Source of the DNA: a virus | Lineage: Duplodnaviria; Caudoviricetes | Direction: 5' to 3' (one strand) | IMG/VR virus record: IMGVR_UViG_3300035208_003115 | Length of the DNA: 64,000 bases | Shown: positions 7,139-56,136 of the stretch, one piece after another | Position numbering within the stretch: the first letter of the stretch is position 1 | How the letters are laid out: every line of letters begins with the position of its first letter | Notes under the pieces: model-generated | Seen by the model: the letters and a program-made list of their open reading frames with translations, nothing else | Database searches by the model: none | Told to the model about the DNA's origin: nothing | Made by a program: the position numbers and the translations under genes

Positions 7139-7846
7139 CTAATTTGTCTCGGGAGTATACTGATAAATAAAGCCCGAGGGCTGAAGTTTGGCGACCTTCT
7201 TCCAGTCCATTTCGGCTTTAGATGCTATGAATCCATAGGGTAAAAGATGGGTTTTGACCCAGGCAATCCACTCGGGAGTCGCCGTGAGGGGAACCTCAAG
7301 CGCAGAGATGAATCCAAACCTTTCATCATCTAGATTTGGACGAGGATATGCCGGCGTAGCTTCTACGACATGGAGCTTATCGGCTACCCTATAGAGCTTA
7401 CTACGAACCAGCGTATATTCGGCCCAATTACCCTGATCAACAAAGACTACGTGGCACTTGGTATCCTTAGCTATTCTAAGAGCTAGCTCTCCTGTTTTCC
7501 CGTAGTAGTCCAGAACCCTATGATATTTAGGTTTTGCTTGCTCTATTGTCGCATGAATCCATTTAAGAATATCTAGATGTTTCATGTGAGTATGGTCACA
7601 TAGCCCATATAGTGGTTCGTCTGAGCCATTTCCCGCCGATGATATTTCTGCAATAACCTGTGGTTCTGTATCTCCCGTGAACTGAGATAGTGCCTGAATT
7701 GCTGGTCTTAGAATTTGAAATACGGCGCGGCCGGCGCTAGCTTCCGAGATTCCTATGAATTTCATCCAGTCTTTGCACTCCGGGAGGTTCATCCTCCACT
7801 CTGTTAGCTGGGCCATATTCTGTGGGACTACTCTTCTGATGGGCAT
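7139..7846 (-). CDS. Class I SAM-dependent methyltransferase-like protein
   Basis: RVLDYYGKTG (motif I-like), VVFVD, ...HLLPYGFI. Confidence 0.55.
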   Translation of the reverse strand: MPIRRVVPQNMAQLTEWRMNLPECKDWMKFIGISEASAGRAVFQILRPAIQALSQFTGDTEPQVIAEISSAGNGSDEPLYGLCDHTHMKHLDILKWIHATIEQAKPKYHRVLDYYGKTGELALRIAKDTKCHVVFVDQGNWAEYTLVRSKLYRVADKLHVVEATPAYPRPNLDDERFGFISALEVPLTATPEWIAWVKTHLLPYGFIASKAEMDWKKVAKLQPSGFIYQYTPETN

Positions 7847-7876
7847 TTTTTACTCGCTTGAATCGTTTTACCATTG

Positions 7877-7942: not shown

Positions 7943-7954
7943 ATAATTATGGTC

Positions 7955-8617
7955 TCATTGTATTGATTCTTTTCCCGTTTCTGTGTAGGCATTTGTCCTT
8001 GTAATTTTGCAGTATGTCATGATGCAGGGATTAACAGAACTATCTTCTATCCCAATAATCTCCATCTTATACTCGTTAGAGGAAATAGTTTCAAGCTTTT
8101 CTTTAACCGCCATTTTAACTCCTGGGCATCGTCTCCACCCATAGTCATGTAGTAAGATTACTCCTCCCACAACAAGTCGAGGCCAGAAGAAATCTAGTCC
8201 GTCTTTTGTGGCCCGATATATATCCGCATCAAGATGAACGAGGCTAAATTGTCTTTTCATCATATCTTCTGTAGCAGATAGGGGGAAGATGCCTTTGATT
8301 ATTTTGACATTCGGGGCATCACTCATATAATTAAGAACATCTTCATAGGGGTAGGCAAAGTCTCCCTTCGCGTGTCCACCTTGATCTTGTTCGCTTATGG
8401 GAATACCCTCGAATGTGTCAAGACTCCATACGGTTTTCTTATCATTTGATACGGCAAGCATTTTGCTCATCCCGCCACGGAATATTCCTAGCTCAGCGAT
8501 ATCCCCAGGAATTTCTATTAATTCTCTCGCACAATCAAAAACAGTTTGGGCGTTCTCTTTAGATAGAGCAGTCCGACTATGAAATCCTGTTTTCCACAAC
8601 TCTTCAAACGTATACAT
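7955..8617 (-). CDS. TylF/MycF-family sugar O-methyltransferase
   Basis: PGDIAELGIFRGG, LDTFEGIP, SLVHLDADIY, GGVILLHDY, CPGV. Confidence 0.9.
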   Translation of the reverse strand: MYTFEELWKTGFHSRTALSKENAQTVFDCARELIEIPGDIAELGIFRGGMSKMLAVSNDKKTVWSLDTFEGIPISEQDQGGHAKGDFAYPYEDVLNYMSDAPNVKIIKGIFPLSATEDMMKRQFSLVHLDADIYRATKDGLDFFWPRLVVGGVILLHDYGWRRCPGVKMAVKEKLETISSNEYKMEIIGIEDSSVNPCIMTYCKITRTNAYTETGKESIQ

Positions 8618-8618: not shown

Positions 8619-9689
8619 CTACTCCTTAATGGTCGAGGATAGATAATCTCTAAGCTTGTTGGAATTGCGAGGCAGATTTATGGCCGTGGCTGAAGGATAG
8701 GCATTGGTAGGCGTAAAGTCGTTTATGAGTATCCGCCGTGCATGTTTTAAGCCGAACAGTATATTGTCATAGGAGAATCCTAGTATTTTTAGATGACGTT
8801 CGGTTATTACTCTTGCCCTACTGGGGCGTGATGTTGTAAGGATTATTTCAATCTTTCCAGTGTTACGCAATTCATTAAGATATGATATATTATCTTTTAG
8901 GCCGGGAGTAGAGCCCCAGGATTTCCCAATATACTCAGATGAGTTTTCCACGAGAACACCATCTATATCGACAAAGAGAGTCGCGAACTCAGAGCGGTAT
9001 CTGTCCCAGTCCTTTATCGTTCCCCAGTCTAAGTAGTTCTTAGCAGGATTATTTCTAAAACGGATTCCATCCAAGAGCATCTTATAGATGATATGGGATA
9101 TATATAGATCTTTATTTTCTTTTGCTAGGCCATCATAGTGTTCGAGATAATCGTTTGCCTCTGCAAAGCTATATGCCCCACAGCAAAATGAAGTGCTTAA
9201 TATCTTTTTCTCTGCAATTCCCGTGATAGAACCGTCGTGCCCTAGCGTGATATAACTCTTGTTTCGGGGATCAATCAAACCCGTTTGTTCTAATTGATAA
9301 GTTGCTATCCAGTTACCGGGCGATATATTGACTTCAAACTGATTATCACAATCTTTGATTATGATAGGTCCCCTAATATGACCTCTCCGGATTCCTAGCG
9401 CGACTGTATCGGGCTGACAATGAGTATCTTCTGGTTTTATAGCAACGAGCGTAATCCTTTTGCCGGGGGCTACTTTTTTAAGCTGGCGCGGTAGACTCTC
9501 TCCATACTCGTTTGCGAATTCCGCTAAAGTAGTAATACAGATAGCAGATATCTTTGATAAATCGAGAGTTCTGATACTTTCCATTAACATAGTATTCCCA
9601 TTGGGATGAGTCAGAGTCCATTTGGGACGGACATTAGGAAAGCGACTTGATGCTCCCGCTATCGGAAGAATTAATGTTGGCTTGCGCAT
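8619..9689 (-). CDS. Sugar/polyol nucleotidyltransferase fused to HAD-like phosphatase
   Basis: ILPIAGASSRFP..RPKW, KDCD, IAEK, DWGT; C-terminal FVDIDGVL..LTTSR. Confidence 0.85.
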   Translation of the reverse strand: MRKPTLILPIAGASSRFPNVRPKWTLTHPNGNTMLMESIRTLDLSKISAICITTLAEFANEYGESLPRQLKKVAPGKRITLVAIKPEDTHCQPDTVALGIRRGHIRGPIIIKDCDNQFEVNISPGNWIATYQLEQTGLIDPRNKSYITLGHDGSITGIAEKKILSTSFCCGAYSFAEANDYLEHYDGLAKENKDLYISHIIYKMLLDGIRFRNNPAKNYLDWGTIKDWDRYRSEFATLFVDIDGVLVENSSEYIGKSWGSTPGLKDNISYLNELRNTGKIEIILTTSRPSRARVITERHLKILGFSYDNILFGLKHARRILINDFTPTNAYPSATAINLPRNSNKLRDYLSSTIKE

Positions 9690-10495
9690 ATCTGAGCTCC
9701 CTTGTATCTATCTCGAAGGACGTTTAGTTCTTCGTCTGTTTTTATATAGGGGACGATTCGTAATAGATTTATTGCTTGGATTAAATCCTGATAACGTTTA
9801 TAGTCCTCAGAAAACATGAATCTTTCATTCAGTATGTTATCTAAATATCGAAGAGCAATATTTATCTGAACGTGGTCAAATGGTTTTCTATATTTTAATA
9901 GAAACCATTTATGGAATGTGTCTTGTCTTAGTTTCGTCATATCTATAACTGGAGCCTCTATATAGCTGTCAAGCGGATCCAATAACCAGACAATATTATT
10001 TTTATCATCAATAACCATATTCGCCAGTGTTAAGTCTCCATGACAAATCCCAACCTTAAGTATAAGAGGAGTATCAATTAGCTCATAAAGGGGGCGCGTA
10101 TCAAACCCCATCCGCCTACATGTCGGTGAAATAGCATCTAGCTTAGTCTTTATTTTTCCACTAACATCCTCTGGATAACTTAGTTCTTGATTGCTTTCTA
10201 TAAAGGTAGCTAATGATTCCGCTAGCCAATTTATCTGTTTCCGATTTGTTGTTTGCAGAAACTCAATTGCATCTTTCCCAAATAGAAAGGGCAGTTTGTA
10301 GCTAGCACTCTTCTCCCGGCATTGAAAAGAATATGGCTTCGGGAGTTGGACGCCTCCCGCCGATCTCCCAGCGAGTAACTGGATCTTTTTATGCTGAGCC
10401 TTAAGTCTATCTGGTTGCCCTGAATGCTTTATAATATATCCATCATGACATATGAGTCTTGCTCCGGAACCAGGCAAGAAGGGTAGTTGATTCAT
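9671..10495 (-). CDS. APH/choline-kinase-like phosphotransferase
   Basis: G.SGA, CHGDLTLANM, LLDPL; start re-called to MNQLPF. Confidence 0.85.
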   Translation of the reverse strand: MNQLPFLPGSGARLICHDGYIIKHSGQPDRLKAQHKKIQLLAGRSAGGVQLPKPYSFQCREKSASYKLPFLFGKDAIEFLQTTNRKQINWLAESLATFIESNQELSYPEDVSGKIKTKLDAISPTCRRMGFDTRPLYELIDTPLILKVGICHGDLTLANMVIDDKNNIVWLLDPLDSYIEAPVIDMTKLRQDTFHKWFLLKYRKPFDHVQINIALRYLDNILNERFMFSEDYKRYQDLIQAINLLRIVPYIKTDEELNVLRDRYKGAQICASQH

Positions 10496-10505
10496 TTCGG
10501 AAGTC

Positions 10506-11162
10506 CTAGATAAACTTCTCGCCGTTGAGAGCGTATAGAAGAGGTTGTTTAAAGTCAAGCTTGACACCGTTACGAGTTGCTAATTTATAGATGGTTTCCT
10601 CGGGATTTTCGGAAGATCCATAAATTTGGCTTACGCGGGCCATATCCTTGGTGTCCCATACTTTAAGGGCTGTTGGCAAATCGCTAATAGCGAACTGGTC
10701 ATTCATGCCTTTATAAACACAGACCGACGGCATAGTATATACGCCGGGCTTCATCCATTGCCCTATATCGTCTATTTTAATATCCAAATCAGGTCTCGAC
10801 AAAATAACCCCATCATATGGGATAGTAGTATCAGCGATTATCTCCAATCCAACCCTGGTTGACCAAAACTGTTTATAATTATTTTCCGGTTTCCATCTGG
10901 TTCCCGGTATTTTAACAACACGACAAAGTGTTGTTAGTCTACTTAGGGCCAGTTCTTTACTTGGTTCATTTAGTATTATTAGATTAAGCCAGGGATTAGA
11001 TTCCAAAAGAAGATGGCTATGCAGATGCTTCCATGTAATAAAATAGGCATCAACTTCATGCCCCATGGAGAGAAGATTATCCCGGTGTTCTTTTATCCGT
11101 CTATCGACATCCTCGAGCGAAGGACGGATGGGACCCCTCCATAGTACCCCATATCGAGCCAC
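10506..11162 (-). CDS. Putative glycosyltransferase-like protein
   Basis: G.IR...F.TW...YDGVILSRPDL...NDQFAI pattern typical of viral GT-A-like proteins. Confidence 0.55.
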   Translation of the reverse strand: MARYGVLWRGPIRPSLEDVDRRIKEHRDNLLSMGHEVDAYFITWKHLHSHLLLESNPWLNLIILNEPSKELALSRLTTLCRVVKIPGTRWKPENNYKQFWSTRVGLEIIADTTIPYDGVILSRPDLDIKIDDIGQWMKPGVYTMPSVCVYKGMNDQFAISDLPTALKVWDTKDMARVSQIYGSSENPEETIYKLATRNGVKLDFKQPLLYALNGEKFI

Positions 11163-12220: not shown

Positions 12221-12934
12221 TTAGTTATCATTTTTCTCTATATAAATCTGATTAGAGGAAACATTACATGAGCCGGCCCAAAATGTATTGAGCTGGTTCT
12301 CCGTATGCCATTCTTTACTCGGAACCCAAGAGCCAAGTTCGGCTCCTATATTCTGAGTACGTCCGAGTCGTGGTCTTACCTCGCTTCTTTCGCCTCGGGT
12401 AAAATGATTAACAGTAGTATCCCATGAAGCTCGTTTGCCTTCGTGGTCCCACTGGGCGCTCATATCTGTCCAGCGATTCTGCCAGGTTCCCCAGCCCCAT
12501 GGAGTAAACCACTTGGTCCTATAGACTGTGCTGAATAAAGAAGAATCTACAGTCTCTTTGTTATAGCCACAGACATTCATAATATCCGTGTCGTCAGCAT
12601 ATTTATCCCGAGCCCACTCCATAAATTCGAGAAAGTCTTTGGCCGGGACTACGTCATCTTCTAGAATTATAACAAAGTCGGACTCTTTAAACCCATGGTC
12701 TAGAGATGCGTGGACATTACGATTGCATCCAAGACGCATGGGATTTATGTGGAGAGTTTTATTTAGACCAGAGATTTTATCTATGGCATCTATTACTTCG
12801 GGGAACCCTGGCTCTGCGTGGATAAATATTTTATACTTCTCTATCCCATAGCAACTCTTCATTCCCTCGAGAACGGCCCGGGTATAACCGGGACGCCGAT
12901 AAACAGGCATTACTATGACTTTTTCGTATCGCAT
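12221..12934 (-). CDS. GT-A glycosyltransferase, GT13/GnT-I-like
   Basis: VMPVYRRPGY, VIILEDD, DFLEFM, PWGWGTW..RW, WD, RP.L.R..NIG..G. Confidence 0.8.
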   Translation of the reverse strand: MRYEKVIVMPVYRRPGYTRAVLEGMKSCYGIEKYKIFIHAEPGFPEVIDAIDKISGLNKTLHINPMRLGCNRNVHASLDHGFKESDFVIILEDDVVPAKDFLEFMEWARDKYADDTDIMNVCGYNKETVDSSLFSTVYRTKWFTPWGWGTWQNRWTDMSAQWDHEGKRASWDTTVNHFTRGERSEVRPRLGRTQNIGAELGSWVPSKEWHTENQLNTFWAGSCNVSSNQIYIEKNDN

Positions 12935-14685: not shown

Positions 14686-14805
14686 TTACTTGCGAAACTT
14701 GTTCAGGAAGCTACGGGTCTTGGCCGTCCACGTGGCTCCCCATCTGGCCCAGCTTGCTGCGCCAGCAGCAAACGTTATTGCTAGGATGATGAGGTTAGTC
14801 AACAT
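14686..14805 (-). CDS. 39-aa membrane peptide (not in ORF track)
   Basis: AAGGAG SD; MLTNLIILAITFAAGAASWARWGATWTAKTRSFLNKFRK. Confidence 0.6.
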   Translation of the reverse strand: MLTNLIILAITFAAGAASWARWGATWTAKTRSFLNKFRK

Positions 14806-15718
14806 GAATGGTCTCCTTGATTACTTCTAGTACCTTCTCTGGGATTATAGCAATATTGCACGGGTTGTTCAACTGGCAATGTGTAAAGCATGGAACAGGT
14901 CTACATACTGCTTCCTTGGGCCTAACTGGCTCTACATACCTCACAGATGGCCCAATTGGCCCCACAAACGGCCCTTTCTGACCCGATTCTTGCGCACAGC
15001 CCATGGTGGCCCCCATGACTATAACAGAGGGCAAATTGACTGATTCAGCCAGATATGAGGGCCCGCTATCAACACCTACATAGAACTTGGCTCTCTCTAG
15101 AACCGCTGCTGTTTCTTGGTACACTGTTTTACCACAGAGGTCTATTGTCCCGGGTACACGCTTGTCAGATCCGATGCCTATCTGAACTACTTCTATACCC
15201 ATGGACTTCTTTATCATGGATACTAATTTTGTGAAGTGCTGAATGGGCCAGTCTTTACTTGCGACTCGAGAGGTGGTATGGATAACGGCATAAGTATTAT
15301 TAGGAATAATGGGGGATATATTTTTTCTGGCCTCGTCGCCTATATTAAAGCGGATATGTTTATCTTTAATGGGAGTGGTTAATAGACCCGTCCTAGATGC
15401 GTACCAGTCAATCATATGAGAGTTACGAGTCTCAGGAGTGTGATGCCACATTGTATCGTAGTGGTTGGCCCTGGCCATCCGGGCTATGTGGTCAGATTGT
15501 TTCCCGCGGAGATATTGATATACATCGGGGTAAGAACCGCCATCATATAGAACGATATCATTGATCTCGGGGTTCCCCGCCAGTAGACCTTTATAGACCT
15601 TATTTGTGTGAAATCGAATTTGAACATCGGGGTATTGTCTTTTTATTTCAGAGATAATAGGGGTTGTCATTAAGACGTCTCCCATCGTCTGAAATAATAC
15701 TAGATCGAATATTTTCAT
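14795..15718 (-). CDS. Glycosyltransferase family 9
   Basis: MGDVLMTTP, YP, NPEI, SKDWP, DLCGK, YVGVDSGPSY. Confidence 0.9.
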   Translation of the reverse strand: MKIFDLVLFQTMGDVLMTTPIISEIKRQYPDVQIRFHTNKVYKGLLAGNPEINDIVLYDGGSYPDVYQYLRGKQSDHIARMARANHYDTMWHHTPETRNSHMIDWYASRTGLLTTPIKDKHIRFNIGDEARKNISPIIPNNTYAVIHTTSRVASKDWPIQHFTKLVSMIKKSMGIEVVQIGIGSDKRVPGTIDLCGKTVYQETAAVLERAKFYVGVDSGPSYLAESVNLPSVIVMGATMGCAQESGQKGPFVGPIGPSVRYVEPVRPKEAVCRPVPCFTHCQLNNPCNIAIIPEKVLEVIKETIHVD

Positions 15719-16851
15719 TTCCAGTCCTCTAATATATCCACTGTTCTAGTTGCGACCTTGGAGGCAATATTATGCCACTCGTATGGTTGCATATCAATGG
15801 CTGCTTTTTCTCCTAGCTTTTCCATCTCTTTGGGATGTTCGTAGGCCCAGCGCATTTGCCTTCGAAGGTCTCCAATGTCTGCATTCCACCACTCATGACC
15901 AGATTGAACGGGCTCTCTTAAAAGCCAGGGAACATCTGAAACGGGAATTTGCCGACACTTAACGAGAAGACCATTTGTTTCATTCATATAGGAACGATGA
16001 CCCGATGCATCTGTCATTATTGTCGGTACCCCACAGGCCATAGACTGCATAGTACCATAACTCCACCCCTCTCCTCGAGTAGGGAGAACATAGCAATTAG
16101 AAGCACGATGAAGAGATGCGATTTCATCATTTGTCATACTGTCTCCGAGGAATAGTAAATGAGCAGTTGACTTGTTGGCTGTTCTATATTTTATAATTAC
16201 GTCTTTAATCATTCTTTTGGATCTCTCGAAGTCCCCGCCGGAGTATGCCTTTAAGACAAGTGTAACGTTGTCCCTAGCTGAGAACTCTTGGAAATATGCG
16301 TTTAGGAGAAGATCTGGGCCTTTACTTGTTTTGTAGTCCATAATACTAAGGAATACAAACTCCTTCCTGCCTATAATTTTTGCAGGACTAATATTCGGGT
16401 TATATCTTTGTAGATTAACTCCTAGTGGAATTACCTGAATCTTTTTTTCGGGCAATCCTCCTTTGACGAAGGCTTGTTTTCCCCATTCTGTTGGAACCCA
16501 TATCTCATCTAATGGGACTTGTTTCTCTATCAACTGCCAGACATATGGGCACCGATCGGTCTCATATATGGTAGCGCAAATATTCGGAACACCCTGCTTT
16601 CGTTCTACGATTCTAGATGGTGGCATATGATTAATATAGATATGGTCATCCGGAAGAGTTGTTCGTTCCATTTCTTGGAGCTTAGTTAGTTGCATATTAG
16701 AGAATACATTTGAGATAGAAGACCAGTTATCCAGAGGGGTTAGTCTCGTCGGGACACCGATGTCATATAGTGCGAGCGACAACTCTCTAACGACTAGAGC
16801 TATTCCAGAGATGTCTTTATACGGTCCATAGATTTCTATTCCAAATGACAT
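15715..16851 (-). CDS. Glycosyltransferase family 4
   Basis: YETD, IWVPTEW, KGPDLLL, YVLPTRGEGWSYGTMQSMACGVP. Confidence 0.9.
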   Translation of the reverse strand: MSFGIEIYGPYKDISGIALVVRELSLALYDIGVPTRLTPLDNWSSISNVFSNMQLTKLQEMERTTLPDDHIYINHMPPSRIVERKQGVPNICATIYETDRCPYVWQLIEKQVPLDEIWVPTEWGKQAFVKGGLPEKKIQVIPLGVNLQRYNPNISPAKIIGRKEFVFLSIMDYKTSKGPDLLLNAYFQEFSARDNVTLVLKAYSGGDFERSKRMIKDVIIKYRTANKSTAHLLFLGDSMTNDEIASLHRASNCYVLPTRGEGWSYGTMQSMACGVPTIMTDASGHRSYMNETNGLLVKCRQIPVSDVPWLLREPVQSGHEWWNADIGDLRRQMRWAYEHPKEMEKLGEKAAIDMQPYEWHNIASKVATRTVDILEDWK

Positions 16852-17807
16852 TATCGATCTCCCAGATCGTGGTCTATCATCATTTGAATCAGTTTTTCAA
16901 ATGTGATAGTAGGTTTCCATCCTAGCAATTTTCTAGCATCTGAGGAGTCTCCACACAGAAGGTCTACTTCAGCCGGGCGAACAAAGCGATTATCCCGCCT
17001 TATGTATTCTCTCCAGTCTAAGCCCACATATCTAAATGCAATTTCAATTAGTTCTTGGACTGTATGGGTTTCACCCGTAGCGAATACCCATTCCCGTGGC
17101 TCATGGTGTTGCATCGCCATATACATACCTAGGGCATAGTCTTTTGAATAGCCCCAGTCTCTTTTGGCGTTAGTGTTTCCTAGGACCAGTTCTGTTTGTG
17201 CGCCATGCTTAATATTAGCGACGGCTTTAGTAATCTTTCGGGTAACAAAGTTCTCTCCTCGGCGAGGAGATTCATTATTAAAGCAGATGGCCGAGATACC
17301 GAAGAGATTATAGGATTCGCGATAGTTAATAGTAGTCCAGTGGCCGAATAACTTGGATATTCCGTAAGGACTCCTTGGATAGAATGGAGTCTTTTCGTTC
17401 TGGGGAGTTTCAGCTACTTTGCCAAACATCTCAGAAGTAGAAGCCGTAAGGAATTTTGACTTGAAGTCTGAGTTACGAATGGCCTCGAGTAGTCTAAGAA
17501 CTCCTAATCCTGAGATATCTGCAGTTGTAATAGGCTCATTGAAACTCACATGAACATGAGATTGAGCCCCTAGGTTATAGACCTCATGGGGCCTAATTGA
17601 TCTGAGAATTCTATCTAGGGAGGATTGATCCGTGAGATCTCCCTGGACAAGTTCTATGTTAGAAAGGATGGACTCTATTCTACTCGTATTGGGTGTAGAG
17701 GTGCGGCGCACGAGACCATATACTTTATATCCTTTTTCTAGTAGGACTTCAGCCAGGTATGAGCCTGTCTGACCGGTGATTCCGGTGATAAGAGCTTTCT
17801 GTTCCAT
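16851..17807 (-). CDS. gmd: GDP-mannose 4,6-dehydratase
   Basis: ALITGITGQTGSYLA, NLGAQSHVHVSF, STSEMFG, PRSPYGISK, ESPRRGENFVTRKIT, RDWG, RPAEVD. Confidence 0.97.
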   Translation of the reverse strand: MEQKALITGITGQTGSYLAEVLLEKGYKVYGLVRRTSTPNTSRIESILSNIELVQGDLTDQSSLDRILRSIRPHEVYNLGAQSHVHVSFNEPITTADISGLGVLRLLEAIRNSDFKSKFLTASTSEMFGKVAETPQNEKTPFYPRSPYGISKLFGHWTTINYRESYNLFGISAICFNNESPRRGENFVTRKITKAVANIKHGAQTELVLGNTNAKRDWGYSKDYALGMYMAMQHHEPREWVFATGETHTVQELIEIAFRYVGLDWREYIRRDNRFVRPAEVDLLCGDSSDARKLLGWKPTITFEKLIQMMIDHDLGDR

Positions 17808-19048
17808 TATACTTCCTCGGGTCTAATTCTTATGTTAGTTGTTTCAGTATCGATATTATCAAATAAGTTTTCCCACTTTTTAATAATTGGTGCCCAGTCG
17901 AACTTCTTGGCGAATTCTTGGGCATTACGTCCTAGCTCAGTCCGCATAGCTTTATTCATAGCTAGTTTATCCATTGTTTCTTTAAGATGTTTGACATCAA
18001 CGATAGCTCTTCGGATGTGAGAACCGGCTTCAACAAGAAATGACGCGACCTTAATTAGCCCCCCACCTTTTGATTGACCAATAAATTCTGGTCCAATAGT
18101 ATACGCCGGAACAATGTTTGGGATGCCCGCGGCCATTGACTCAATAATTGGTATACCGAATCCTTCACCCCAGGCAGTATTAACATGAACATCCATACAT
18201 CCGTAGATTAGACGAAGAACAGGAGGAGGGACTCCGCGGTTAGGATGGAGGTCGGGAGTCACATAAACCCTATCTGATATCCCGAATTCCAAACCCAGTC
18301 GGCTTAGTAACCACCCTTGATCTTGGTTGCAAGCATGAATTAGAAGTCTTGACTTAGGATGAGTCTTTATGTGCTCCGAGAACGCTTCATACAGGGCGGG
18401 GATATTTTTGCGAGGCTGGTTTCTTGCTACCATTCCGAATACTACTACATCATCAGATCCAAACATTTCTATTCTTTTTTGTGATCTAACTTCTTCCGGA
18501 AGGGGACTAGACCAAAGCCCAAAGTCAATTCCATGATATATCATTTCGATATCTCTATTGAGGGCCATTCCAGCAACTCGTTGACCGAATTGGCTAAAGG
18601 TTAATGGCGTGTCGATATATTGTAGGAAATTTTTCCACTTGTCGGGAACAGGCATTCCGTCGATAGGAACATAAGAAACCAAATGATGGTTTTTAAGATT
18701 GGGGTGCTCTAGAATCCAATCGACCATATAGATGTCCCCGAAGTAGACAACAATATCTGGCTTGAAGTCTTCGAGAATAGCATCTATAGTCTTTCCGCCA
18801 TTCTTATCTTTCATTGTCTTGTCTTCTTTAGAAAGACTAGTGTGATATAGCTTGAATGGGAAGTTTGAAGACCGAAGACCCTCATATGGATAGGTTGGTT
18901 CTTTGGCGGGAGGCTCGAACCACCCCTGGCATGCTATCTCATATTTTTTGGTAGCAGCCAGACGTAGTAAAATGTCGTGCGTAATTACTCCATAGCCAGT
19001 ATGAATGGATGGAGTTTGAGAACACCACAGAATTCTTTTTTTAGTCAT
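17807..19048 (-). CDS. Glycosyltransferase family 4
   Basis: P..HTGYG, YVPIDG, HGID, ARNQPRKN, GEGFGIPIIESMAAGIP. Confidence 0.9.
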   Translation of the reverse strand: MTKKRILWCSQTPSIHTGYGVITHDILLRLAATKKYEIACQGWFEPPAKEPTYPYEGLRSSNFPFKLYHTSLSKEDKTMKDKNGGKTIDAILEDFKPDIVVYFGDIYMVDWILEHPNLKNHHLVSYVPIDGMPVPDKWKNFLQYIDTPLTFSQFGQRVAGMALNRDIEMIYHGIDFGLWSSPLPEEVRSQKRIEMFGSDDVVVFGMVARNQPRKNIPALYEAFSEHIKTHPKSRLLIHACNQDQGWLLSRLGLEFGISDRVYVTPDLHPNRGVPPPVLRLIYGCMDVHVNTAWGEGFGIPIIESMAAGIPNIVPAYTIGPEFIGQSKGGGLIKVASFLVEAGSHIRRAIVDVKHLKETMDKLAMNKAMRTELGRNAQEFAKKFDWAPIIKKWENLFDNIDTETTNIRIRPEEV

Positions 19049-26141: not shown

Positions 26142-26561
26142 CTATTTAGATATTTGGCTGATTACTTCCATCACTTTTTCTGGGGAGATAAAGGCATCGG
26201 GGTTGTACGGTTCAGATTCCCACGTATCAAATTGATTCTTCCGCATATACATTCTACCCTTAATTAGATTGATATTCTCCTTGTGACCAAAAATAAGAGG
26301 ATCAGATGTCCCCCATAATACTATAGCTTTTACTTTAATATCCCAGCAAAAGTGTTGAAGAAAACTGTCACAACATATTACGTGTTTGGCTTCTTTAAGT
26401 AGCTTCTCCAGTTTATCTAGGGGCTCCTTGACTACTTCAACGACTTCGTAGTCCACAGAGAGAAGCTTGAATAGCTCCTCCCAGTAAGGGTATTCCTTAG
26501 CGCTATGATTTCCATTGCGCAGTGGCCGGACGCCCCTTGAGTAGACTACTAGAGGCTTCAT
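26142..26561 (-). CDS. GT9 C-terminal lobe (split glycosyltransferase)
   Basis: AKEYPYWEEL, VICCDSFLQH, AIVLWGTSDP. Confidence 0.75.
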   Translation of the reverse strand: MKPLVVYSRGVRPLRNGNHSAKEYPYWEELFKLLSVDYEVVEVVKEPLDKLEKLLKEAKHVICCDSFLQHFCWDIKVKAIVLWGTSDPLIFGHKENINLIKGRMYMRKNQFDTWESEPYNPDAFISPEKVMEVISQISK

Positions 26562-27556
26562 ATTTCTACCCCATAGAGTTCAGCATATGCGTACTTGATT
26601 TCTTTGTCTTTCCATCCCTTATCAATGCAGTATTTAAATATATTATGTCTATCGGGGTTACACAGCTTTTGACCTTCAGCGAGACTTATACAATTCTCTC
26701 CCGGGAATAGTTCCGGATAGCATACGGCCAATACTACGTCCTTATACTTTTCTTTTATCTTAGGCAGTATTGATCGGAAAACTATATGGTCTCCCATCCC
26801 CGAGTCTAGATAACAAATCTTGTGTCCTTCGTATTCTCGGAGTGTTTCCCTATAGGCTATTTCGTCTCGGTCCCAATCTTCTTTCTGTCCGGAAGCTCTA
26901 ATCCCTCCCGTAGAAGCTCTGAAGTGATATGTGACAGCCGCTGGATCAACTATCAGCTTATACCCCTTTCTATATATCCCATAGGTGTGAAGGGTCTCTT
27001 CCCGGTGAGCGACGCAGCTTAAGCTAAGATCGAACTCTTGTATTCCTTTACGATAGAGATATGAACTATATAAATGTTCTACTTCTTTAATATCTGAATT
27101 GGGCCAATAGAACCATTGGCAATTACCATTATCAATATTTTTAATTGTATTAGGAGGAAAGTCTTGTTTGATTGTCCCCGGCGGTATAACTAGTCCGGCT
27201 ACAGCACCAACGCCATTCAGCATACGTAACTCTAGTATTTGGAGAACGGTAGGTTCAGCTACCTCGTCATCATCTATTCTCCATACGAGGTCAGTTGCCT
27301 TATCCTGAATCATCTGGTGGCCCCAGTGTTGACCACGGCCCAACCCATAGATAACTTCGAACTCAATTCGCTTAGTGTTGATTAAATCAAATAGATGCTG
27401 ATAGATGGGAGTCTCTCGCATCTCTATACGCGTGGACGAATCGTCATAGATGATGATTTTATCTGGTGTTCGAGTCTGGTTAATGACAGACATTAAAGCC
27501 ATGGGAAGTTGGTCATATCTATCTTTAGTACAGATGTCTACAGTTATATGCGCCAT
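26558..27556 (-). CDS. GT2 glycosyltransferase fused to GT9-like N-terminal lobe
   Basis: ICTKDR, NQT..PD, YDDS, RIDDD, HREET; C-terminal SGMGDHIVF..ILPKIKEKY. Confidence 0.85.
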   Translation of the reverse strand: MAHITVDICTKDRYDQLPMALMSVINQTRTPDKIIIYDDSSTRIEMRETPIYQHLFDLINTKRIEFEVIYGLGRGQHWGHQMIQDKATDLVWRIDDDEVAEPTVLQILELRMLNGVGAVAGLVIPPGTIKQDFPPNTIKNIDNGNCQWFYWPNSDIKEVEHLYSSYLYRKGIQEFDLSLSCVAHREETLHTYGIYRKGYKLIVDPAAVTYHFRASTGGIRASGQKEDWDRDEIAYRETLREYEGHKICYLDSGMGDHIVFRSILPKIKEKYKDVVLAVCYPELFPGENCISLAEGQKLCNPDRHNIFKYCIDKGWKDKEIKYAYAELYGVEI

Positions 27557-29709: not shown

Positions 29710-30238
29710 AATAGAAGTATACCTTTCTAACCCAAAGTTTAAATGCTTCTTGAGTCCTTGAGCCCTTTGCCCAGTTGCAACTGCCACAACATGCCACAAC
29801 ATTTCCGACTATATATCCTTTAGAGCTATCTATTCTATCAATACCGCTACCAATAAATGTGCCGTTTTTGATGCTATTCTTATAGATATTGCTAGGAGGT
29901 TGATTACAATAGAAGCAGTTTTGAGAGACTAGTGCTCTAAAATCACTCTTTGTTAGTGAGAACTCTATTCCTCTTGTTCGTGCAGCGCACTTAATCTTGC
30001 TCAAGGCCTGATTAAAGGCTGCTTCTCCTAAAGGAAGTTTTCTATTAGAACCTTCGTATTTCAAACACCCACACGACTTGGTATGGCCTCTATTTATCTC
30101 GTGCGAATTGGTTATTCTTATTTTTCCACAGTCGCACTTACACTCCCATAAAGCAAAGCCATTATAATTTCCTGGTAGTCTTTTGACTATTGTTAATTTA
30201 GAGATCTTACGTCCAGTCAGGTCTTTGAATCTAGGCAT
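29696..30238 (-). mobile_element. Free-standing HNH homing endonuclease gene
   Basis: DLTG...LT...W.C.CDCG...SCGC N-domain; CFYC..GIDRIDSSKGY..GNVV.CC..CN.AK nuclease domain; flanked by duplicated target-gene starts. Confidence 0.85.
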
Positions 30239-30240
30239 GT

Positions 30241-52035: not shown

Positions 52036-55000
52036 TTATAATCCTGTCCATCTTAGATAAGAGAAGTAATCAATGAATTTCTCGTCGAGTCGGAGGGCAC
52101 CCTGCTGAAGAGGGTCTAGGCCTATATTAATTGTAGCACGCTTTTCTGGAATAGGAACGTCTTCGTACCATCCAGATGCGATTACTTCTACGTCTCCCGG
52201 CGTGATTACCCGAAGATTATCCTGAGTATGATGATCTAAATCTGCATTGAAGTATAGATACGTTCCAGAGGGAGTAGGGAGTGACCCTACCGGATGAGTT
52301 GGGGCATAAGTATCAAATGTAGTTCTAAGTCCTGCGGCATAATTAAGCATAGTCAGGTTAGAAGCAACAACAACTAACTTACCGAAGTCAGTCGGACTGT
52401 CATACTCGTCTACTTCATATGCCAAAAAGTTAGCGTGTCCCGAGTGAGCGGCGATGGGCCATACTGATGTCCCGTCAACTTTGAGTGAAGTGATGTCGAT
52501 ATTATGCGCGCTATCGCTAATCCCATCACCCAGATCAGAGAAATATCCCTGGCCTCCTATCGCCGTTCTAAAGTATCCATCATCTGAGCTATAGACCCAT
52601 CCAGAAGCGAGAGGTAGGGCTACATTATAGGAATCAGATGGACTCATAAATAGAATCTTAACTTCGTAGTCTCCGTATCCCGAAATATCCGGGTTAACAG
52701 AGTATAACAGCATGTCATCGAAAGATGTTCCAAGAGTTTTATTAGGGAAGAATGCAGACATAGCCCCAGACAAGGTCATCGCCCAACCCGTTAAAGAGTG
52801 TGATTCCCATGCCGGGCCGGTTGAAACTACCCATCCTCCGCCGATTGGGCGAATTGCGTTGTTAAATACAATTGCTTCTTGGTATGCCGTCGGTCCCCAG
52901 GGGGCATTTGCGTGTTGAGCCCAGTCGGTTCCGTCAAATGACCAAACCTCAGATGAACCGATAAGACCAGAGGAATCAATCTTATTAACTCCGCCTATTA
53001 CCCATAGCCTGTCTCTGTATACGACAGTAGCGAATCCAACCGACATGTCAAATGGTAATGTTCCCCAGCTTGTCCAGCTAATGCCGTCGTCTGAGTACCA
53101 CATATCATGGAGAGGAGCGCTGACACTTGCCATAGGATCTGCGGTATATGGGGCAAACGGAATAGCACTTTGATTTCCTGCGATAACCCATATCTTGTTC
53201 TGGAATGCAGTTATCCCACCCTGGACACGTGGACCCCATGGGCAAACGGATGCCGTCCAGTTTGTCCCATCTGTTGTCCTCCAAACGGCCGACTGGTTAC
53301 AGCCTCCTAGATCAAACAGTGTTTCGTTGGGTTCTCCTGGATGAAGAACAACCATACTGTTATAGGCAAGACCTGCATCAAAATATCCCTGGGGGCCATA
53401 GCCGACTGAGTTATCTTCGTTAATCCCCGCCCAGGTTCTCGACCACCTGCTACCATCTAGAGTTCTCCAGAGACCCGCCCAGGTCCTGGCATAAGTATAC
53501 CCCTTGAAACTGGCCGTTTGCTGATTGCTTCCATAGCGTTTCATCATGACTAGAGGGTGGCCATCATTAATATTAAATGGGGTTGCAGAGGAAGCAGAAT
53601 CTATATAGACCGGAAGTTCTGATATCCAGTTAGTCCCGTCTAAGGTTGAAGCCCTTCGGATATAGAGACTTGTTCTATCTGCTGCATTGACGATTTGTTC
53701 AACGGCCCAAAGTTTAGGAGTAGTTCCTGCCTTTGTTACATAGTAACCGACTTCATCTCCCCAGTAGAAGTCTACGATGGGGGCCGGGCGAGGAATCGAA
53801 TATGAATCCCAGTCTGTGGCATGGAAATCAAAAGCCCAATTTATACCTATCCCAGACGGATTAGCATAGAAATCACTAGGCCCCGAGATATATCCTGAAG
53901 CACTTATAACGTCAAGATCAATGGGGCTAGAATATGTTGCAATGGCCGTTCCATCAAACTGAGTTAAAACGGGAGTTCCATTTGGAGAAACTGTTCCTTC
54001 GTTTCCTGCTGCTAAGCGGAAATATATCTCTGCTCCTATGACAGGAAGACCATCTTCGTCTAGTAGTGTTCCCAAAAGTAGGGACTGGGAACCCCCAATC
54101 GGGAGGGTATTCGGGATTGCTTCTAACGAGAAGCTGTCATCATTTAGGACTTGCTTTTTATCGCTGATCCAAATGAATCCGTCATAACCCATTCCATGTA
54201 GGGGGTTGAAGTCCCACGGAAGTCTATGCCACTCTGATGCTGGAGTGCCTTCATATCTGATCGTAAGGCCTGAGTGGTCATGATTAATGGTAACAAGACC
54301 GCTCGTGTCAACGGTAAACTCAAATTGAGGGCTTGTGTCTAGGTCTGCAACATGTAGCCACTCAACTCCGGACGGAGCGACTACTCCATCTTGATCATAG
54401 AGAAAGTATGGGCTACTGAATGTTGGGTTTAGAAGCTGATATGAAACTTCACCAGAAGGAATTGTTTCGACTATCTCAGTAGAAAATAGATAATCTCTAT
54501 CGTCGTGAATATAGAAATTACCAGTGTGGATATCAGGTGACCATATATCCCCTGAGACAGGAACGATTCTAACAAGCAAGTCTTGAGAGTTGGGGTCAGA
54601 GACTCCGGACTGATAATAGATCCTGTCCACTCCCGAAGTCACTGAAGAGTAGAAGTCAGGAACTACATTTGTATTATTCGCGCCACCGTCAAATGGAGCT
54701 AAGTCCCAAATGAATGCAGAGGGGTCAGTTTCCCCAGAACCCCACAGAATGGGGAACGTTTCTAGTATCTCTCGAGTATAATCTACAAATCTTTCTGAGG
54801 CGATATTAGAACTTGGATCTACAACCGAACTATAGAAGGTCGGATCAAACAAAGGATTAATTTTAGCTATACCCGAAACAGTAGATGGATACTCTCCAGA
54901 AACATATATAGGATATCCGTCGTAGAACTCTCCATCATCGAATAGATTAGTTGGATATCCACTCTGGGGAAGCCATCCATAATAGTCGAGGGATGTTTCT

Positions 55001-56136
55001 CTGCTGACTCCGTTAATTAAACCTTGGATAGTTGAATTAGAACGGAATTTAAACACCGTAAGAAGACGGTCTTTATAATCTTGGTTGGATTCCCCGATAA
55101 GGCGAGGAGTATCAAATCTTAGTCCATATTCATCAAAATAGTTCCATACAGCTAGTGGCTCTCCAGAATATGCAACACCATCGATTATGGTTGTAGTATA
55201 TCCCTCATTTGTATAGAAGTATTTTTTATCATAGTCGAAGATGCCATAGTCGAAGTCAAGCTTGAACTTAACGACATCAACTAGGGACTGAGTATAGAAG
55301 TATCGATGATCGATATCTGTCGCTAACCCCGATATAAGCGGGTCGGCATAGACGACTTCATCAAACAGAGGGAGGACTCTAACATATTCGGTGTTCCCAC
55401 TCCAGTCGGCTTCTGTGTTTTCTTTTATAGGAATTCGGACATCGTAGACTCTAAAGGTTTCGCCAATTAGAGTGACGAGATAGTCTCCGTTTAGGCAGTA
55501 ACCTTGAATTAGACCTGATACTAGGGAGCCAGCAGAATCTAAAAGACTGACCTTACTAATGGGTTCGAAGTTCTGCGGTTGCGCATATGGGAGCTCCATG
55601 TCTCCGATTACGAAGAACTTCTCCATCTTGACTTCATCCGCCTCTTGGTATAGACGAATATAGGATGTCTTTTCTTCCTTCCACATATCTACATGCGGGA
55701 GATCGTAGGGAATATTTTCATCTACAGCGTTAAATGAAACTCCACTTGGGAGCCCGGCAGCTTGAACCCCTATCGCTGTTATCCGTGTTGGGGGGACAAG
55801 ATAGGTCATCTGGTCTAAATCTTCTACGATAGAGATAGGATTGGCGTCTCCAGTCGCAGTATGAACAACGTCTTCACTTAGTTCAATCTTTCTTGGAAGG
55901 CGAACACGTTGAATTTCACTTACTACGTTAATGTCGCAAGTGCTTAAGGCCATAACTCCAGAGGCAGTAGCATAGCTTCGTTGAACAATATCAAACTCGC
56001 GACCAATAGGCGCAAGTAACTGTTGCCCGACTGAACTTCGCTCAATCCGGAGTTTAGTCCAGCTTGGGTAATAGTTCGCCAGAGATTGTGTATTGAATGA
56101 ATAGTACTTGTCAACTACGCCGGAGGCATGGTCCAT
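52036..56136 (-). CDS. Large baseplate wedge/tail protein with Ig-like and Asp-box/Kelch propeller domains
   Basis: FDE.GL....RL.GESN..YK.RL motif; G.P..GA.I.F...T..DG.A.A.Y Ig-like; W.T.DG..W repeats; LWVIGG. Confidence 0.8.
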   Translation of the reverse strand: MDHASGVVDKYYSFNTQSLANYYPSWTKLRIERSSVGQQLLAPIGREFDIVQRSYATASGVMALSTCDINVVSEIQRVRLPRKIELSEDVVHTATGDANPISIVEDLDQMTYLVPPTRITAIGVQAAGLPSGVSFNAVDENIPYDLPHVDMWKEEKTSYIRLYQEADEVKMEKFFVIGDMELPYAQPQNFEPISKVSLLDSAGSLVSGLIQGYCLNGDYLVTLIGETFRVYDVRIPIKENTEADWSGNTEYVRVLPLFDEVVYADPLISGLATDIDHRYFYTQSLVDVVKFKLDFDYGIFDYDKKYFYTNEGYTTTIIDGVAYSGEPLAVWNYFDEYGLRFDTPRLIGESNQDYKDRLLTVFKFRSNSTIQGLINGVSRETSLDYYGWLPQSGYPTNLFDDGEFYDGYPIYVSGEYPSTVSGIAKINPLFDPTFYSSVVDPSSNIASERFVDYTREILETFPILWGSGETDPSAFIWDLAPFDGGANNTNVVPDFYSSVTSGVDRIYYQSGVSDPNSQDLLVRIVPVSGDIWSPDIHTGNFYIHDDRDYLFSTEIVETIPSGEVSYQLLNPTFSSPYFLYDQDGVVAPSGVEWLHVADLDTSPQFEFTVDTSGLVTINHDHSGLTIRYEGTPASEWHRLPWDFNPLHGMGYDGFIWISDKKQVLNDDSFSLEAIPNTLPIGGSQSLLLGTLLDEDGLPVIGAEIYFRLAAGNEGTVSPNGTPVLTQFDGTAIATYSSPIDLDVISASGYISGPSDFYANPSGIGINWAFDFHATDWDSYSIPRPAPIVDFYWGDEVGYYVTKAGTTPKLWAVEQIVNAADRTSLYIRRASTLDGTNWISELPVYIDSASSATPFNINDGHPLVMMKRYGSNQQTASFKGYTYARTWAGLWRTLDGSRWSRTWAGINEDNSVGYGPQGYFDAGLAYNSMVVLHPGEPNETLFDLGGCNQSAVWRTTDGTNWTASVCPWGPRVQGGITAFQNKIWVIAGNQSAIPFAPYTADPMASVSAPLHDMWYSDDGISWTSWGTLPFDMSVGFATVVYRDRLWVIGGVNKIDSSGLIGSSEVWSFDGTDWAQHANAPWGPTAYQEAIVFNNAIRPIGGGWVVSTGPAWESHSLTGWAMTLSGAMSAFFPNKTLGTSFDDMLLYSVNPDISGYGDYEVKILFMSPSDSYNVALPLASGWVYSSDDGYFRTAIGGQGYFSDLGDGISDSAHNIDITSLKVDGTSVWPIAAHSGHANFLAYEVDEYDSPTDFGKLVVVASNLTMLNYAAGLRTTFDTYAPTHPVGSLPTPSGTYLYFNADLDHHTQDNLRVITPGDVEVIASGWYEDVPIPEKRATINIGLDPLQQGALRLDEKFIDYFSYLRWTGL

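Follow-up and report, generated by a model that had tools for sequence, protein, structure and literature searches.

A candidate glycosylation module beside an essentially proline-free, collagen-like tail fibre in an uncultured phage

Among described systems, the closest to the locus analysed here is that of SgtA and BclA3 in Clostridioides difficile. SgtA is a GT-A/WcaA-type glycosyltransferase (GT) that is encoded beside bclA3 and adds beta-O-GlcNAc to the threonines, and also the serines, of collagen-like GPT repeats (PMC7157674). Its substrate, like BclA of Bacillus anthracis, is a collagen-like Gly-X-Thr/Ser protein of a surface filament. The bacterial autotransporter heptosyltransferases TibC and Aah (the BAHT enzymes, TIGR04414) offer another comparison; these are cytoplasmic enzymes of the GT9 fold that O-glycosylate a repetitive surface protein at many of its serines. 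Among phages, virion O-glycosylation was reportedly described in mycobacteriophages by Freeman et al. (2023, Cell Host Microbe). The acceptors there, as summarised in PMC12619734, are the C termini of capsid and tail-tube subunits, and a citing paper, PMC11256854, also treats the subject.

The window, a stretch of 64,000 nucleotides of viral DNA, comes from a large, uncultured phage with a contractile tail and contains its module of tail, baseplate, and fibre genes along with two blocks of glycan genes. Its baseplate proteins are distant relatives of those of Bacillus phage 0305phi8-36. An IMG/VR contig, G001, is syntenic with it over the whole region and retains both GT blocks. The fibre gene and its collagen-like parts are as follows.

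30459..38378, minus strand: tail fibre, 2639 aa (Pfam Collagen PF01391, E 4e-87, 12 stretches; tail-fibre PHROGs; 209 SG and 44 GS dipeptides)
34638..36137, minus strand: collagen-like segment 1, residues about 748-1247 (31, 66, 21, and 42 triplets by run detection)
33639..34241, minus strand: collagen-like segment 2, residues 1380-1580 (67 Gly-X-Ser/Thr triplets)

The fibre opens with an N-terminal domain, followed by the two collagen-like segments, a Gly-rich repeat region, and C-terminal beta-rich domains. Its match to PF01391 (E 4.4e-87) reaches 286 bits, the cut-off being 27.2, and Gly recurs unbroken at each third residue over long runs; in segment 1 the Gly-X-Ser/Thr triplets are interrupted by short G-[FHY]-S-G-S-G breaks. 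The proline-free Gly-X-Ser/Thr repeat amounts to ~680 residues. Five runs hold 227 Gly-X-Y triplets, with Y occupied by Ser in 154, Thr in 57 (Ser/Thr together, 93%), and Pro in 1. A collagen-like triple-helix protein is predicted, with a putative helix that has proline at 1 of 227 Y positions. The SG count, which the earlier note had put at well over 100, is mostly a by-product of the repeat: a Y-position Ser meets the Gly of the next triplet. Because 159 of the 209 SG sit inside the Gly-X-Ser/Thr runs, the z of 20.9 obtained with composition-preserving shuffles is trivial.

Directly downstream of the fibre gene, where it had previously been placed, lies the set of genes called block 2 here.

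30241..30297, minus strand: relic of the 5' end that the GT2 gene originally had, reading LPKCSIVIPTYNHC and then a stop, ~160 nt past the fibre stop
29696..30238, minus strand: HNH / endonuclease VII-type homing endonuclease within the GT2 5' end (phrog_1035, E 1e-21; phrog_374, E 2e-18)
27556..29709 (ORF 27556-29802), minus strand: soluble three-domain enzyme, GT2 + Methyltransf_24 + GT17 (Pfam E 8e-18, 4e-16, and 1e-32)
26558..27556, minus strand: second GT2, 332 aa (PF00535, E 2.7e-6, 27.9 bits against a gathering threshold of 23.3; 60% identical in G001)
26142..26561, minus strand: GT9-like C-terminal fragment, 139 aa (PF01075, E 8e-5; 68% identical to a 137-aa homologue in G001)

The fusion likely starts at the Met at 29709. 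Its GT2 domain (PF00535, residues 36-178) scores 65.3 bits against a gathering threshold of 23.3, and its GT17 domain (PF04724, residues 459-724) scores 113.8 bits against 26. In G001, a fibre of 3442 aa, again of the Gly-X-Ser type, is followed downstream by the same GT fusion, which is 61-63% identical, in the same place, and better conserved than most structural proteins. The HNH endonuclease, with no homologue in G001, is a later insertion that separates the fibre from the fusion gene; the relic beyond it was compared with the working GT2 start, MPKISIVIPSFNHC.

Is the pairing of fibre and GT2 peculiar to this phage? Relatives of the GT2 domain are encoded in 399 viral stretches, and linkage was scored on the best 80 loci, 49-50 of which also encode, on the strand of the GT2, a collagen-like ORF of the Gly-X-Ser/Thr type. 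When the loci are dereplicated at 70% identity, a collagen-like gene is found upstream of GT2 in 22 of the 29 clusters with enough upstream DNA, and these clusters share with the window and G001 the arrangement known from SgtA and BclA3, namely, an adjacent, co-oriented GT-A gene and Ser/Thr at Y. The gap between the two genes is often 4-83 nt, no dereplicated cluster has them on opposite strands, and a nearby collagen gene is missing in 7 of the 29. As a control, 80 viral loci that carry Gmd (1.33 Mb) were scanned, and none has a collagen-like ORF (Fisher p 6.5e-20); the phage types of this set are unmatched. GT2 is fused to at least one methyltransferase domain in all 10 other loci scanned, from a minimal form of ~420 aa to a protein of 1931 aa with four GT2 stretches, Methyltransf_24, and GT17; GT17 is also present at two viral loci, L019 and L021. 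The cultured phages of GenBank contain no close homologue of the fibre-adjacent GT2, and our literature search found no paper on a phage pairing of collagen fibre and GT. The link between this GT2 family and Gly-X-Ser collagen-like genes is tight and directional, and it holds in many viral contigs that are unrelated to one another. Adjacency falls short of proving an enzyme-substrate pair. Since so many unrelated phages have the two genes together, this phage probably coats its own fibre with sugars.

The likeness to SgtA and BclA3 is one of arrangement and enzyme type: a soluble GT-A (WcaA/GT2-type) gene adjoins the gene for a collagen-like substrate, and O-glycosylation of the hydroxy residue at Y, for which SgtA accepts Ser in place of Thr, is predicted here. 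The natural glycan of that system is extended and capped (PMC7157674), and an extended, capped glycan is likewise predicted from the genes of the phage. The differences are several. The carrier is a spore filament in one case and a phage tail fibre in the other, the repeat here is Gly-[Tyr/Thr/Ala]-Ser and essentially proline-free rather than Gly-Pro-Thr, and the enzyme gene lies downstream of the substrate gene, whereas that of SgtA lies upstream. Unlike SgtA, the phage enzyme is fused to a methyltransferase and GT17, and no TPR domain was detected among the Pfam matches of the fusion or 10 other GT ORFs. With the mycobacteriophages, as far as the sources above describe them, the locus would share phage-encoded, soluble GTs that act in the cytoplasm on virion proteins of the same phage, leaving glycans over exposed surfaces. 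It differs from them in its acceptor, a putative collagen-like fibre rather than capsid and tail-tube C termini, as well as in GT families, hosts, and scale, there being 8 GT domains here in addition to genes for sugar nucleotides and methylation.

The remaining glycan genes form block 1; replication genes (a nuclease and a primase-helicase) lie between it and the fibre.

17807..19048, minus strand: GT4 glycosyltransferase (Pfam Glycos_transf_1, E 3e-10)
16851..17807, minus strand: GDP-mannose 4,6-dehydratase, Gmd (Pfam E 2e-126; TIGR01472, 421.3 bits against an NCBIfam equivalog cut-off of 415)
15715..16851, minus strand: GT4 glycosyltransferase (Pfam E 1.5e-13)
14795..15718, minus strand: GT9 heptosyltransferase-like enzyme (PF01075, E 6e-14; weak PDB matches to WaaC and TibC)
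12221..12934, minus strand: GNT-I (GT13)-like GT-A glycosyltransferase (PF03071, E 5.5e-13; 58% identical in G001)
9671..10567, minus strand: APH-fold kinase, possibly a sugar kinase (PF01636, E 6.7e-6)
8619..9689, minus strand: 356-aa protein whose C-terminal part is weakly HAD/phosphatase-like (HAD_SAK_2, E 0.019; phrog_1238, E 1e-4)
7955..8617, minus strand: TylF-type sugar O-methyltransferase (PF05711, E 1.6e-17)

Over both blocks, Pfam supports 8 GT domains, two methyltransferases, Gmd, and one kinase. About nine GT domains had been claimed, the ninth being an unclassified GT that has no significant match. Two of four supposed methyltransferase domains stand, the TylF-like enzyme at 7955-8617 and Methyltransf_24 in the fusion, while the other two lack a significant match. 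Gmd holds at the equivalog level. From a proposed kinase/NTase/HAD module the APH-type kinase is retained, the NTase has no significant match, and the HAD assignment is weak. No reductase or epimerase that would complete a 6-deoxyhexose after Gmd was identified. The GT9-like enzyme and fragment recall TibC and Aah, from which the locus differs in that its fibre-linked enzyme is the GT2-methyltransferase-GT17 fusion. Membership of the GT9 enzyme at 14795-15718 in the BAHT family was rejected at 29.7 bits against a TIGR04414 cut-off of 200, and the fragment at 26142-26561 does not match that profile.

Our preferred reading, to which we give a probability of roughly 60%, is that the core of the locus is a fibre-glycosylation module, carrying out cytoplasmic O-glycosylation and methylation of the fibre in the way that SgtA serves BclA3. 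In the following scheme we infer the acceptor, the modified residue, the chemistry of the sugars, and what block 1 does. In the host cytoplasm, the GT2 domain would move a sugar from a nucleotide sugar to the hydroxyl of a Y-position Ser or Thr, and the fused methyltransferase would then O-methylate the transferred sugar. The GT17 domain and other soluble GTs would lengthen the glycan. Block 1 (Gmd, two GT4, GT9, the GT13-like enzyme, the TylF-type methyltransferase, and the kinase) would probably supply a 6-deoxyhexose and further extension or capping. The result would be a glycan-sheathed fibre. Such a sheath could stabilise a triple helix lacking proline and hydroxyproline, and it could also protect the fibre or adjust how it binds. 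The linkage of GT2 to collagen genes thereby lends support to the earlier proposal that the phage's soluble GTs act on virion protein, with the fibre as prime substrate, and the proposed methyl cap fits the constant fusion of GT2 to a methyltransferase. The tie of block 1 to the fibre is weaker than that of block 2, because replication genes intervene and because GT4, GT9, and Gmd in aquatic phages are usually interpreted as lipopolysaccharide (LPS) genes (PMC7029224).

What would glycosylation of the fibre entail? Sugar-sheathed, proline-free collagen would then be a feature of many uncultured phages of aquatic and environmental origin, changing how their host recognition, stability, and antigenicity are modelled, and many "LPS genes" near phage tail-fibre genes would require reinterpretation. 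The locus would also provide a compact, soluble, linked enzyme-substrate pair, a GT2-methyltransferase of ~420 aa and a Gly-X-Ser repeat, usable for glycosylated collagen-like materials.

Might the GT blocks, and block 1 especially, instead alter the LPS core, O-antigen, or capsule of the host envelope, acting against superinfection or for release and leaving the virion unmodified? This is how aquatic phage GTs are usually interpreted (PMC7029224 and PMC10202952), block 1 sits amid replication rather than structural genes, GT4 and Gmd are classic LPS/exopolysaccharide families, and the best equivalog matches of the GT9 enzyme are LPS heptosyltransferases. All of those matches, however, fall far under their cut-offs (75 bits against 467). 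Envelope remodelling also leaves the directional coupling of block 2 to collagen genes across many phages unexplained, and the two blocks are conserved together in G001. Nor do the glycan blocks contain a membrane-bound Gtr-type protein, ligase, or initiating transferase; no flippase, polymerase, or polyprenyl-phosphate transferase is among their Pfam matches, and none of their ORFs has a membrane-like segment (maximum 19-residue Kyte-Doolittle hydropathy, 1.47). O-antigen modification of the Gtr or Wzx-Wzy type was rejected, its required integral-membrane components (flippase, bactoprenol-linked GT, polymerase) being missing from the blocks. We regard envelope remodelling as unlikely. Phage GTs are also known to glycosylate phage DNA. 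Diverse glycans on viral DNA are the subject of a paper cited in PMC12619734, and hypermodified bases of this kind would evade restriction. Two related contigs, both partial, show no thymidylate-synthase-like hydroxymethylase, 8 GT domains plus sugar methylases far exceed known DNA systems, and the collagen adjacency would again go unexplained; DNA as the acceptor seems to us very improbable.

Does a Ser-Gly rule reach beyond the fibre? The earlier note had proposed Ser-Gly as a general O-glycosylation sequon, with SG sites dispersed across many exposed virion proteins bearing a methyl-capped coat, and had likened it to the Ser-Gly site of animal proteoglycans. In animals the site serves in the secretory pathway, and the phage setting is the cytoplasm. 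The analogy fails in other respects, as neither glycan block has a GT14 (xylosyltransferase) domain by Pfam and the SG flanks are hydrophobic, not acidic; the dipeptide is all that is in common. Two neighbouring non-repetitive proteins come into this comparison.

52036..56136, minus strand: 1366-aa virion protein adjoining baseplate J (28 SG and 7 GS, z 5.8)
56139..57368, minus strand: baseplate J / wedge subunit (Pfam PF04865, E 3e-19; phrog_6; 0 SG and 5 GS)

The dipeptide counts cited for the sequon were all exact: 28 SG to 7 GS in 52036-56136, 8 to 4 in 40865-43558, 10 to 6 in 39347-40837, 4 to 1 in 6502-6975, and 7 to 1 in the first 245 aa of 48926-50653, with no SG in baseplate J. Each protein was tested for SG and GS by composition-preserving shuffles, and the empirical null came from 302 phage ORFs that are non-collagen and 400 aa or longer (z(SG) with a mean of 0.2-0.3, an sd of 1.1, and a maximum of 3.5). 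Against this null the 1366-aa protein stands out and is the sole non-collagen protein with a robust SG excess, making one clear outlier among 13 non-fibre tail-module proteins. Of the other listed proteins, 39347-40837 (p 0.004, z 3.1) and 6502-6975 (p 0.02) are marginal, and 40865-43558 and 48926-50653 show no significant excess. The fibre's N-terminal domain leans to SG as well (12 against 5, z 2.9). Outside the list, GS prevails in 50655-52034 (2 SG, 9 GS), 58622-63955 (7 and 13), and the C-terminal parts of the fibre (11 and 26), as it does in baseplate J. The examples first chosen are a one-sided selection: pooled tail and baseplate proteins, minus the fibre and the 1366-aa protein, have 51 SG and 53 GS, where 44.5 of each are expected. 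The large non-collagen proteins of phages with the GT2-collagen module likewise show no SG enrichment over controls (mean z, 0.20 against 0.28). A general Ser-Gly sequon that is independent of the fibre repeat is not supported for virion proteins.

How, then, is the 1366-aa protein to be read? Its ten closer homologues retain the SG excess (z 2.9-9.7). Distant homologues show no such excess; they come from four phage genomes that are 99-100% complete, have no collagen fibre, and give only one weak GT2 match. In this family, therefore, the comparison with relatives that have almost no GT2 leaves the sequon idea unrefuted, though the contrast between the clades is one evolutionary event only. 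The flanks, [PAVIT]-S-G-[VILEYW], resemble X-S-G-X of the fibre repeat, and in the confident part of a predicted model 6 of 6 SG lie in loops or turns. These points, with the same lean in the fibre's N-terminal domain and in 39347-40837, are what a general sequon has in its favour; set against the even pool, the several large proteins that lean the other way, and the module-bearing phages, they leave it improbable. The turns in question come just before strands, and the family's excess derives mainly from ~10-13 positionally conserved columns, which speaks against a scattered sequon and for a clade-specific beta-turn (Ser/Asn/Asp-Gly before a strand) that is purely structural and unrelated to the GTs. 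So does the pattern of substitution: the Ser of SG is swapped to Thr in 7% of cases compared with 12% for other Ser, and replacements in the closest homologues are mostly the turn-like N/D/A-Gly. The Kelch-like part of the protein has no SG between residues 762 and 1055, and the dipeptide FD deviates equally (z 5.6) in the same protein, so large dipeptide deviations arise without any sequon.

We put the purely structural reading at about even odds. Against it, distant homologues share the domain yet have no SG at those columns, so that the fold needs none, an alignment that is itself uncertain at 25% identity. On the model, SG at these conserved beta-turns is most simply a clade-specific structural motif, with a second substrate possible; glycosylation is no likelier than a structural role. 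A further reading, which we hold to be doubtful, joins the protein to the fibre: the collagen-directed GT2-methyltransferase would recognise x-Ser-Gly-hydrophobic in the fibre and in exposed beta-turns of the 1366-aa protein, the clade having gained the module and then SG turns that extend the glycan coat, in a sequon-directed form of cytoplasmic O-glycosylation in a bacterial virus. Should Ser-Gly hold for this protein, phage protein glycosylation would have its first rule of the sequon type; the evidence so far makes it a lead rather than a finding. Lineage-private SG is near expectation in 9 of 11 family sequences, which counts against a sequon, and significantly higher in the other two (z 3.8 and 4.4), which hints at selection for SG content beyond the fixed sites.

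The true feature of this region is a conserved phage module, probably for glycosylating the tail fibre; its chemistry is in every part predicted from genes. Between 4.9 and 64 kb of the window, nearly every gene lies on the minus strand; the order is as follows.

Features of the window, from its end leftward
58622-64000, running past the window end, minus: tail-module protein, longer than 1777 aa and endolysin-like in its C-terminal part (phrog_20474, E 2e-42)
Between that protein and baseplate J: small tail proteins
Between the small tail proteins and the 1366-aa protein, minus: baseplate J (PF04865, phrog_6)
52036-56136, minus: virion protein of 1366 aa
Between the 1366-aa protein and the fibre: seven "virion structural proteins," of which some have discoidin-like domains
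30459-38378, minus: collagen-like tail fibre of 2639 aa
26.1-29.7 kb, minus: glycan block 2, following the fibre
Between blocks 2 and 1: small ORFs, a primase-helicase, and a PD-(D/E)XK nuclease
7.9-19.0 kb, minus: glycan block 1

Because of its endolysin-like part, the first of these proteins probably acts as a lysin associated with the tail or is tape-measure-like. Megablast with the structural and glycan regions found no DNA-level relative among GenBank phages. The baseplate proteins share 27 to 35% identity with their counterparts in Moorella phage MTATph1 and in phages like Bacillus phage 0305phi8-36, distant relationships that were the sole tblastn matches. A much closer relative is the IMG/VR contig G001 (105.9 kb), which is syntenic over the entire region, with protein-by-protein identities of 35 to 77%.

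The strongest result of the analysis is the linkage of the fibre to a GT2 enzyme. In G001, a 3442-aa Gly-X-Ser fibre is followed by the same fusion of GT2, methyltransferase (Methyltransf_24), and GT17 domains that block 2 carries, at 61 to 63% identity. A scan of IMG/VR with an alignment of the fusion returned 399 relatives, nearly all matching its N-terminal GT2 domain only. Among the best 80 of these loci, 49 to 50 contain a Gly-X-Ser/Thr collagen-like ORF, without exception on the strand of the GT, in which X is mostly Tyr, Phe, Ile, or Thr and Y is overwhelmingly Ser. Dereplication at 70% GT2 identity gave 37 clusters, and setting aside 8 with too little upstream DNA left 29. The collagen-like ORF lies upstream of GT2 in 22 of these 29 informative clusters, often ending 4 to 83 nt before the GT start; the other 7 have different contexts. 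As a control, 80 Gmd-centred viral loci (1.33 Mb) held no such ORF (Fisher p 6.5e-20 against the GT2 loci).

The enzyme itself varies in size. In all 10 of the other loci scanned for domains, GT2 shares its chain with one or more methyltransferases; the minimal form, GT2 plus methyltransferase, is about 420 aa, and the larger enzymes contain as many as four GT2 stretches. One such ORF of 1931 aa (L019:8957-14752), downstream of a collagen-like gene, carries Methyltransf_24 and GT17 domains besides its four GT2 stretches, and another of 2969 aa (L020:6825-15734), likewise downstream of a collagen-like gene, is a candidate giant single-chain glycosylation enzyme. The fibre of G001 (L018:1-9717) has Cys at Y in 58 of 547 triplets and Ser in 456, which may point to disulfides between chains or to a different modification. 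Bacterial genome contigs scanned with the fusion alignment gave no match, under patterns stricter than and different from those of the viral scan, so that the two are not comparable. In cultured phages, tblastn with the GT2 domain finds only generic GT2 at about 25% identity.

The junction of the two genes in the window (29696-30297, minus) has been interrupted. The original start of the GT2 gene lies about 160 nt past the fibre stop, and its first 14 codons persist as a relic that reads LPKCSIVIPTYNHC up to a stop. About 14 codons into the gene, an HNH/endonuclease VII-type gene of 180 aa has been inserted; downstream of it the working GT2 gene restarts with a near-duplicate N terminus, MPKISIVIPSFNHC. 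The insert is absent from G001. A promoter and terminator scan of the interval between fibre and GT detected none above shuffle background.

What might such an enzyme do beside a collagen-like gene? The nearest working likeness is the SgtA-BclA3/BclA pair, the phage side of the comparison being read from genes. SgtA of C. difficile, a GT-A/WcaA-type enzyme encoded beside bclA3, puts beta-O-GlcNAc on Thr of GPT collagen repeats, also accepts Ser, and begins a longer, capped glycan (PMC7157674). Mycobacteriophage virion glycosylation is a looser likeness. The TibC/BAHT system is excluded, since the TIGR04414 score, 29.7 bits, falls short of the 200-bit cut-off, and the module is judged to be neither a proteoglycan-type Ser-Gly system nor a Gtr-type O-antigen modifier. 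In the literature searched, no paper describes collagen-like phage fibres of the Gly-X-Ser type in company with GT2-methyltransferase enzymes.

No protein of either glycan block has a membrane-like segment. A GT-A gene next to the gene of a filament with Ser/Thr at Y, together with the lack of lipid-carrier machinery, points to direct cytoplasmic O-glycosylation: the soluble GT-A enzyme would modify Ser/Thr of the fibre repeat, the sugar would then be O-methylated, and other soluble GTs would extend it. In the cuticle collagen of Riftia, triple helices poor in proline are stabilised by glycosylation of Thr at Y, which suggests a reason why sugars might be required by a phage collagen that has no proline.

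Block 1 could plausibly supply and extend this glycan. Its Gmd would yield a 6-deoxyhexose precursor, its TylF-type enzyme would methylate deoxysugars, and it also encodes GT4, GT9, and GT13-like proteins and a kinase. Both blocks are kept in G001, and this co-conservation and the solubility of the proteins are the basis for plausibly linking block 1 to the fibre. The GT9 relatives found in viral contigs all belong to the same clade, so they give no tie between block 1 and fibres elsewhere. Its genes may instead be "LPS genes" in the usual sense, which is the interpretation that phage genes of this sort commonly receive (PMC7029224, PMC10202952) and stays a live alternative for block 1. Papers on aquatic phages take neighbouring GTs for modifiers of LPS or DNA. 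Glycosylation of phage DNA is unlikely here: two related, partial contigs contain no hydroxymethylase homologue, and modification of DNA would leave the linkage to collagen unexplained.

The gene content described in the earlier note was borne out for the most part. Pfam and NCBIfam support two GT2, two GT4, a full GT9 and a GT9 fragment, a GNT-I/GT13-like protein, and GT17, but not a ninth GT; the TylF-type and Methyltransf_24 methyltransferases, but not two further ones; and, from the remaining claims, Gmd (above its equivalog cut-off) and an APH-fold kinase, with a weak HAD and no NTase. The block 1 ORFs claimed as NTase, extra methyltransferases, and ninth GT matched nothing firm in NCBIfam, Pfam (E up to 5), or PHROGs. 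At 8619-10567 (minus), the kinase adjoins a protein with a weak HAD or "phosphoheptose isomerase" PHROG match; with two GT9-like genes in other parts of the blocks, these matches, all of them weak, hint at a heptose-type pathway. Block 1 also holds a tRNA-Ala(UGC) gene (14512-14590, minus) between a GT9 gene and an ORF without assigned function. Midway through the glycan block is a gene (13232-13903, minus) for a protein with a von Willebrand factor A domain (PF00092, E 6e-8), which lacks a homologue in G001.

The earlier note had placed the glycan on a Ser-Gly (SG) sequon scattered over exposed virion surfaces. Its observations are confirmed in part and its interpretation is supported in part: every SG and GS (Gly-Ser) count was exact, but the sequon is an over-reading, with the 1366-aa protein as a possible exception. 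In composition-preserving shuffles this protein was a clear outlier (28 SG against 10.8 expected, z 5.8), while the other non-fibre proteins were not. In an empirical null of 302 non-collagen ORFs, each 400 aa or longer and taken from 160 viral loci, z(SG) had a mean of 0.2 to 0.3, a standard deviation of 1.1, and a maximum of 3.5, so the 1366-aa protein is truly unusual. The fibre's own z(SG) of 20.9 is trivial, because 159 of its 209 SG fall in Gly-X-Y runs whose Y position (227 triplets) is Ser in 154 and Thr in 57, about 93% together. Its non-collagen parts are mixed, with 12 SG and 5 GS in the N-terminal 745 aa (z 2.9) and 5/15 and 6/11 in C-terminal parts. The protein at 39347-40837 reaches z 3.1, and several lean the other way (SG versus GS: 2 and 9 at 50655-52034, 0 and 5 in baseplate J, 7 and 13 at 58622-63955). 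Pooled, the tail module minus the fibre and the 1366-aa protein has 51 SG and 53 GS. The proposed scatter over virion surfaces is absent.

Is the excess in that protein a sequon? SG is its most deviant dipeptide, with Phe-Asp close behind (17 copies, z 5.6), and the Kelch-like part between residues 762 and 1055 is free of SG. A DNA-level cause is ruled out, as the 28 SG are spread over 15 hexamers, a codon diversity that leaves no DNA motif behind the excess. Ten homologues at 36 to 67% identity keep the excess (z 2.9 to 9.7). Its bulk comes from about 10 to 13 SG columns, each common to at least 5 of the 11 sequences. Nine of the 11 have about as many private SG as expected, and the other two exceed this at z 3.8 and 4.4. 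Ser of SG is conserved above other Ser and less often replaced by Thr (7% versus 12%), and where the closest homologues replace SG, they mostly have Asn-, Asp-, or Ala-Gly. An AlphaFold model of residues 1-770 from 4 sequences was unusable (pLDDT 39.8), and one of residues 285-640 from 33 sequences was good only for 506-640 (pLDDT 85 to 94). In that confident stretch, 6 of 6 SG lie in a turn or loop just ahead of a beta-strand. Foldseek found no significant fold match in the PDB for the modelled region. A conserved turn motif fits the site pattern no less well than a sequon does.

Distant homologues (24 to 34% identity) have no SG excess and carry other residues at the SG columns, in an alignment that is uncertain at this distance. 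Four of the five distant-homologue records searched are 99 to 100% complete large-phage genomes; in these genomes no collagen-like gene passes the Pfam cut-off, one weak GT2 match is the total for that family, and the copies of the protein have z(SG) of -0.3 to 0.9. In the SG-rich clade, every readable context (the window, G001, and a further contig, G008) has a Gly-X-Ser fibre. The GT is present in the window and G001, and the G008 contig stops within its collagen gene. No close relative of the 1366-aa protein without a GT was found, G008 ending where it does and the contig G007 being too short. The SG excess is thus unequal between GT-bearing and GT-less relatives, for this protein only and in a single clade contrast over that uncertain alignment, and the SG idea survives for it alone. 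The opposite dipeptide, GS, is over-represented in the neighbouring 459-aa protein at 50655-52034, minus (z 3.8). So it is in some of the 1366-aa protein's distant homologues (7 GS versus 2 SG, z 3.2; L191-L193, about 9965-11566).
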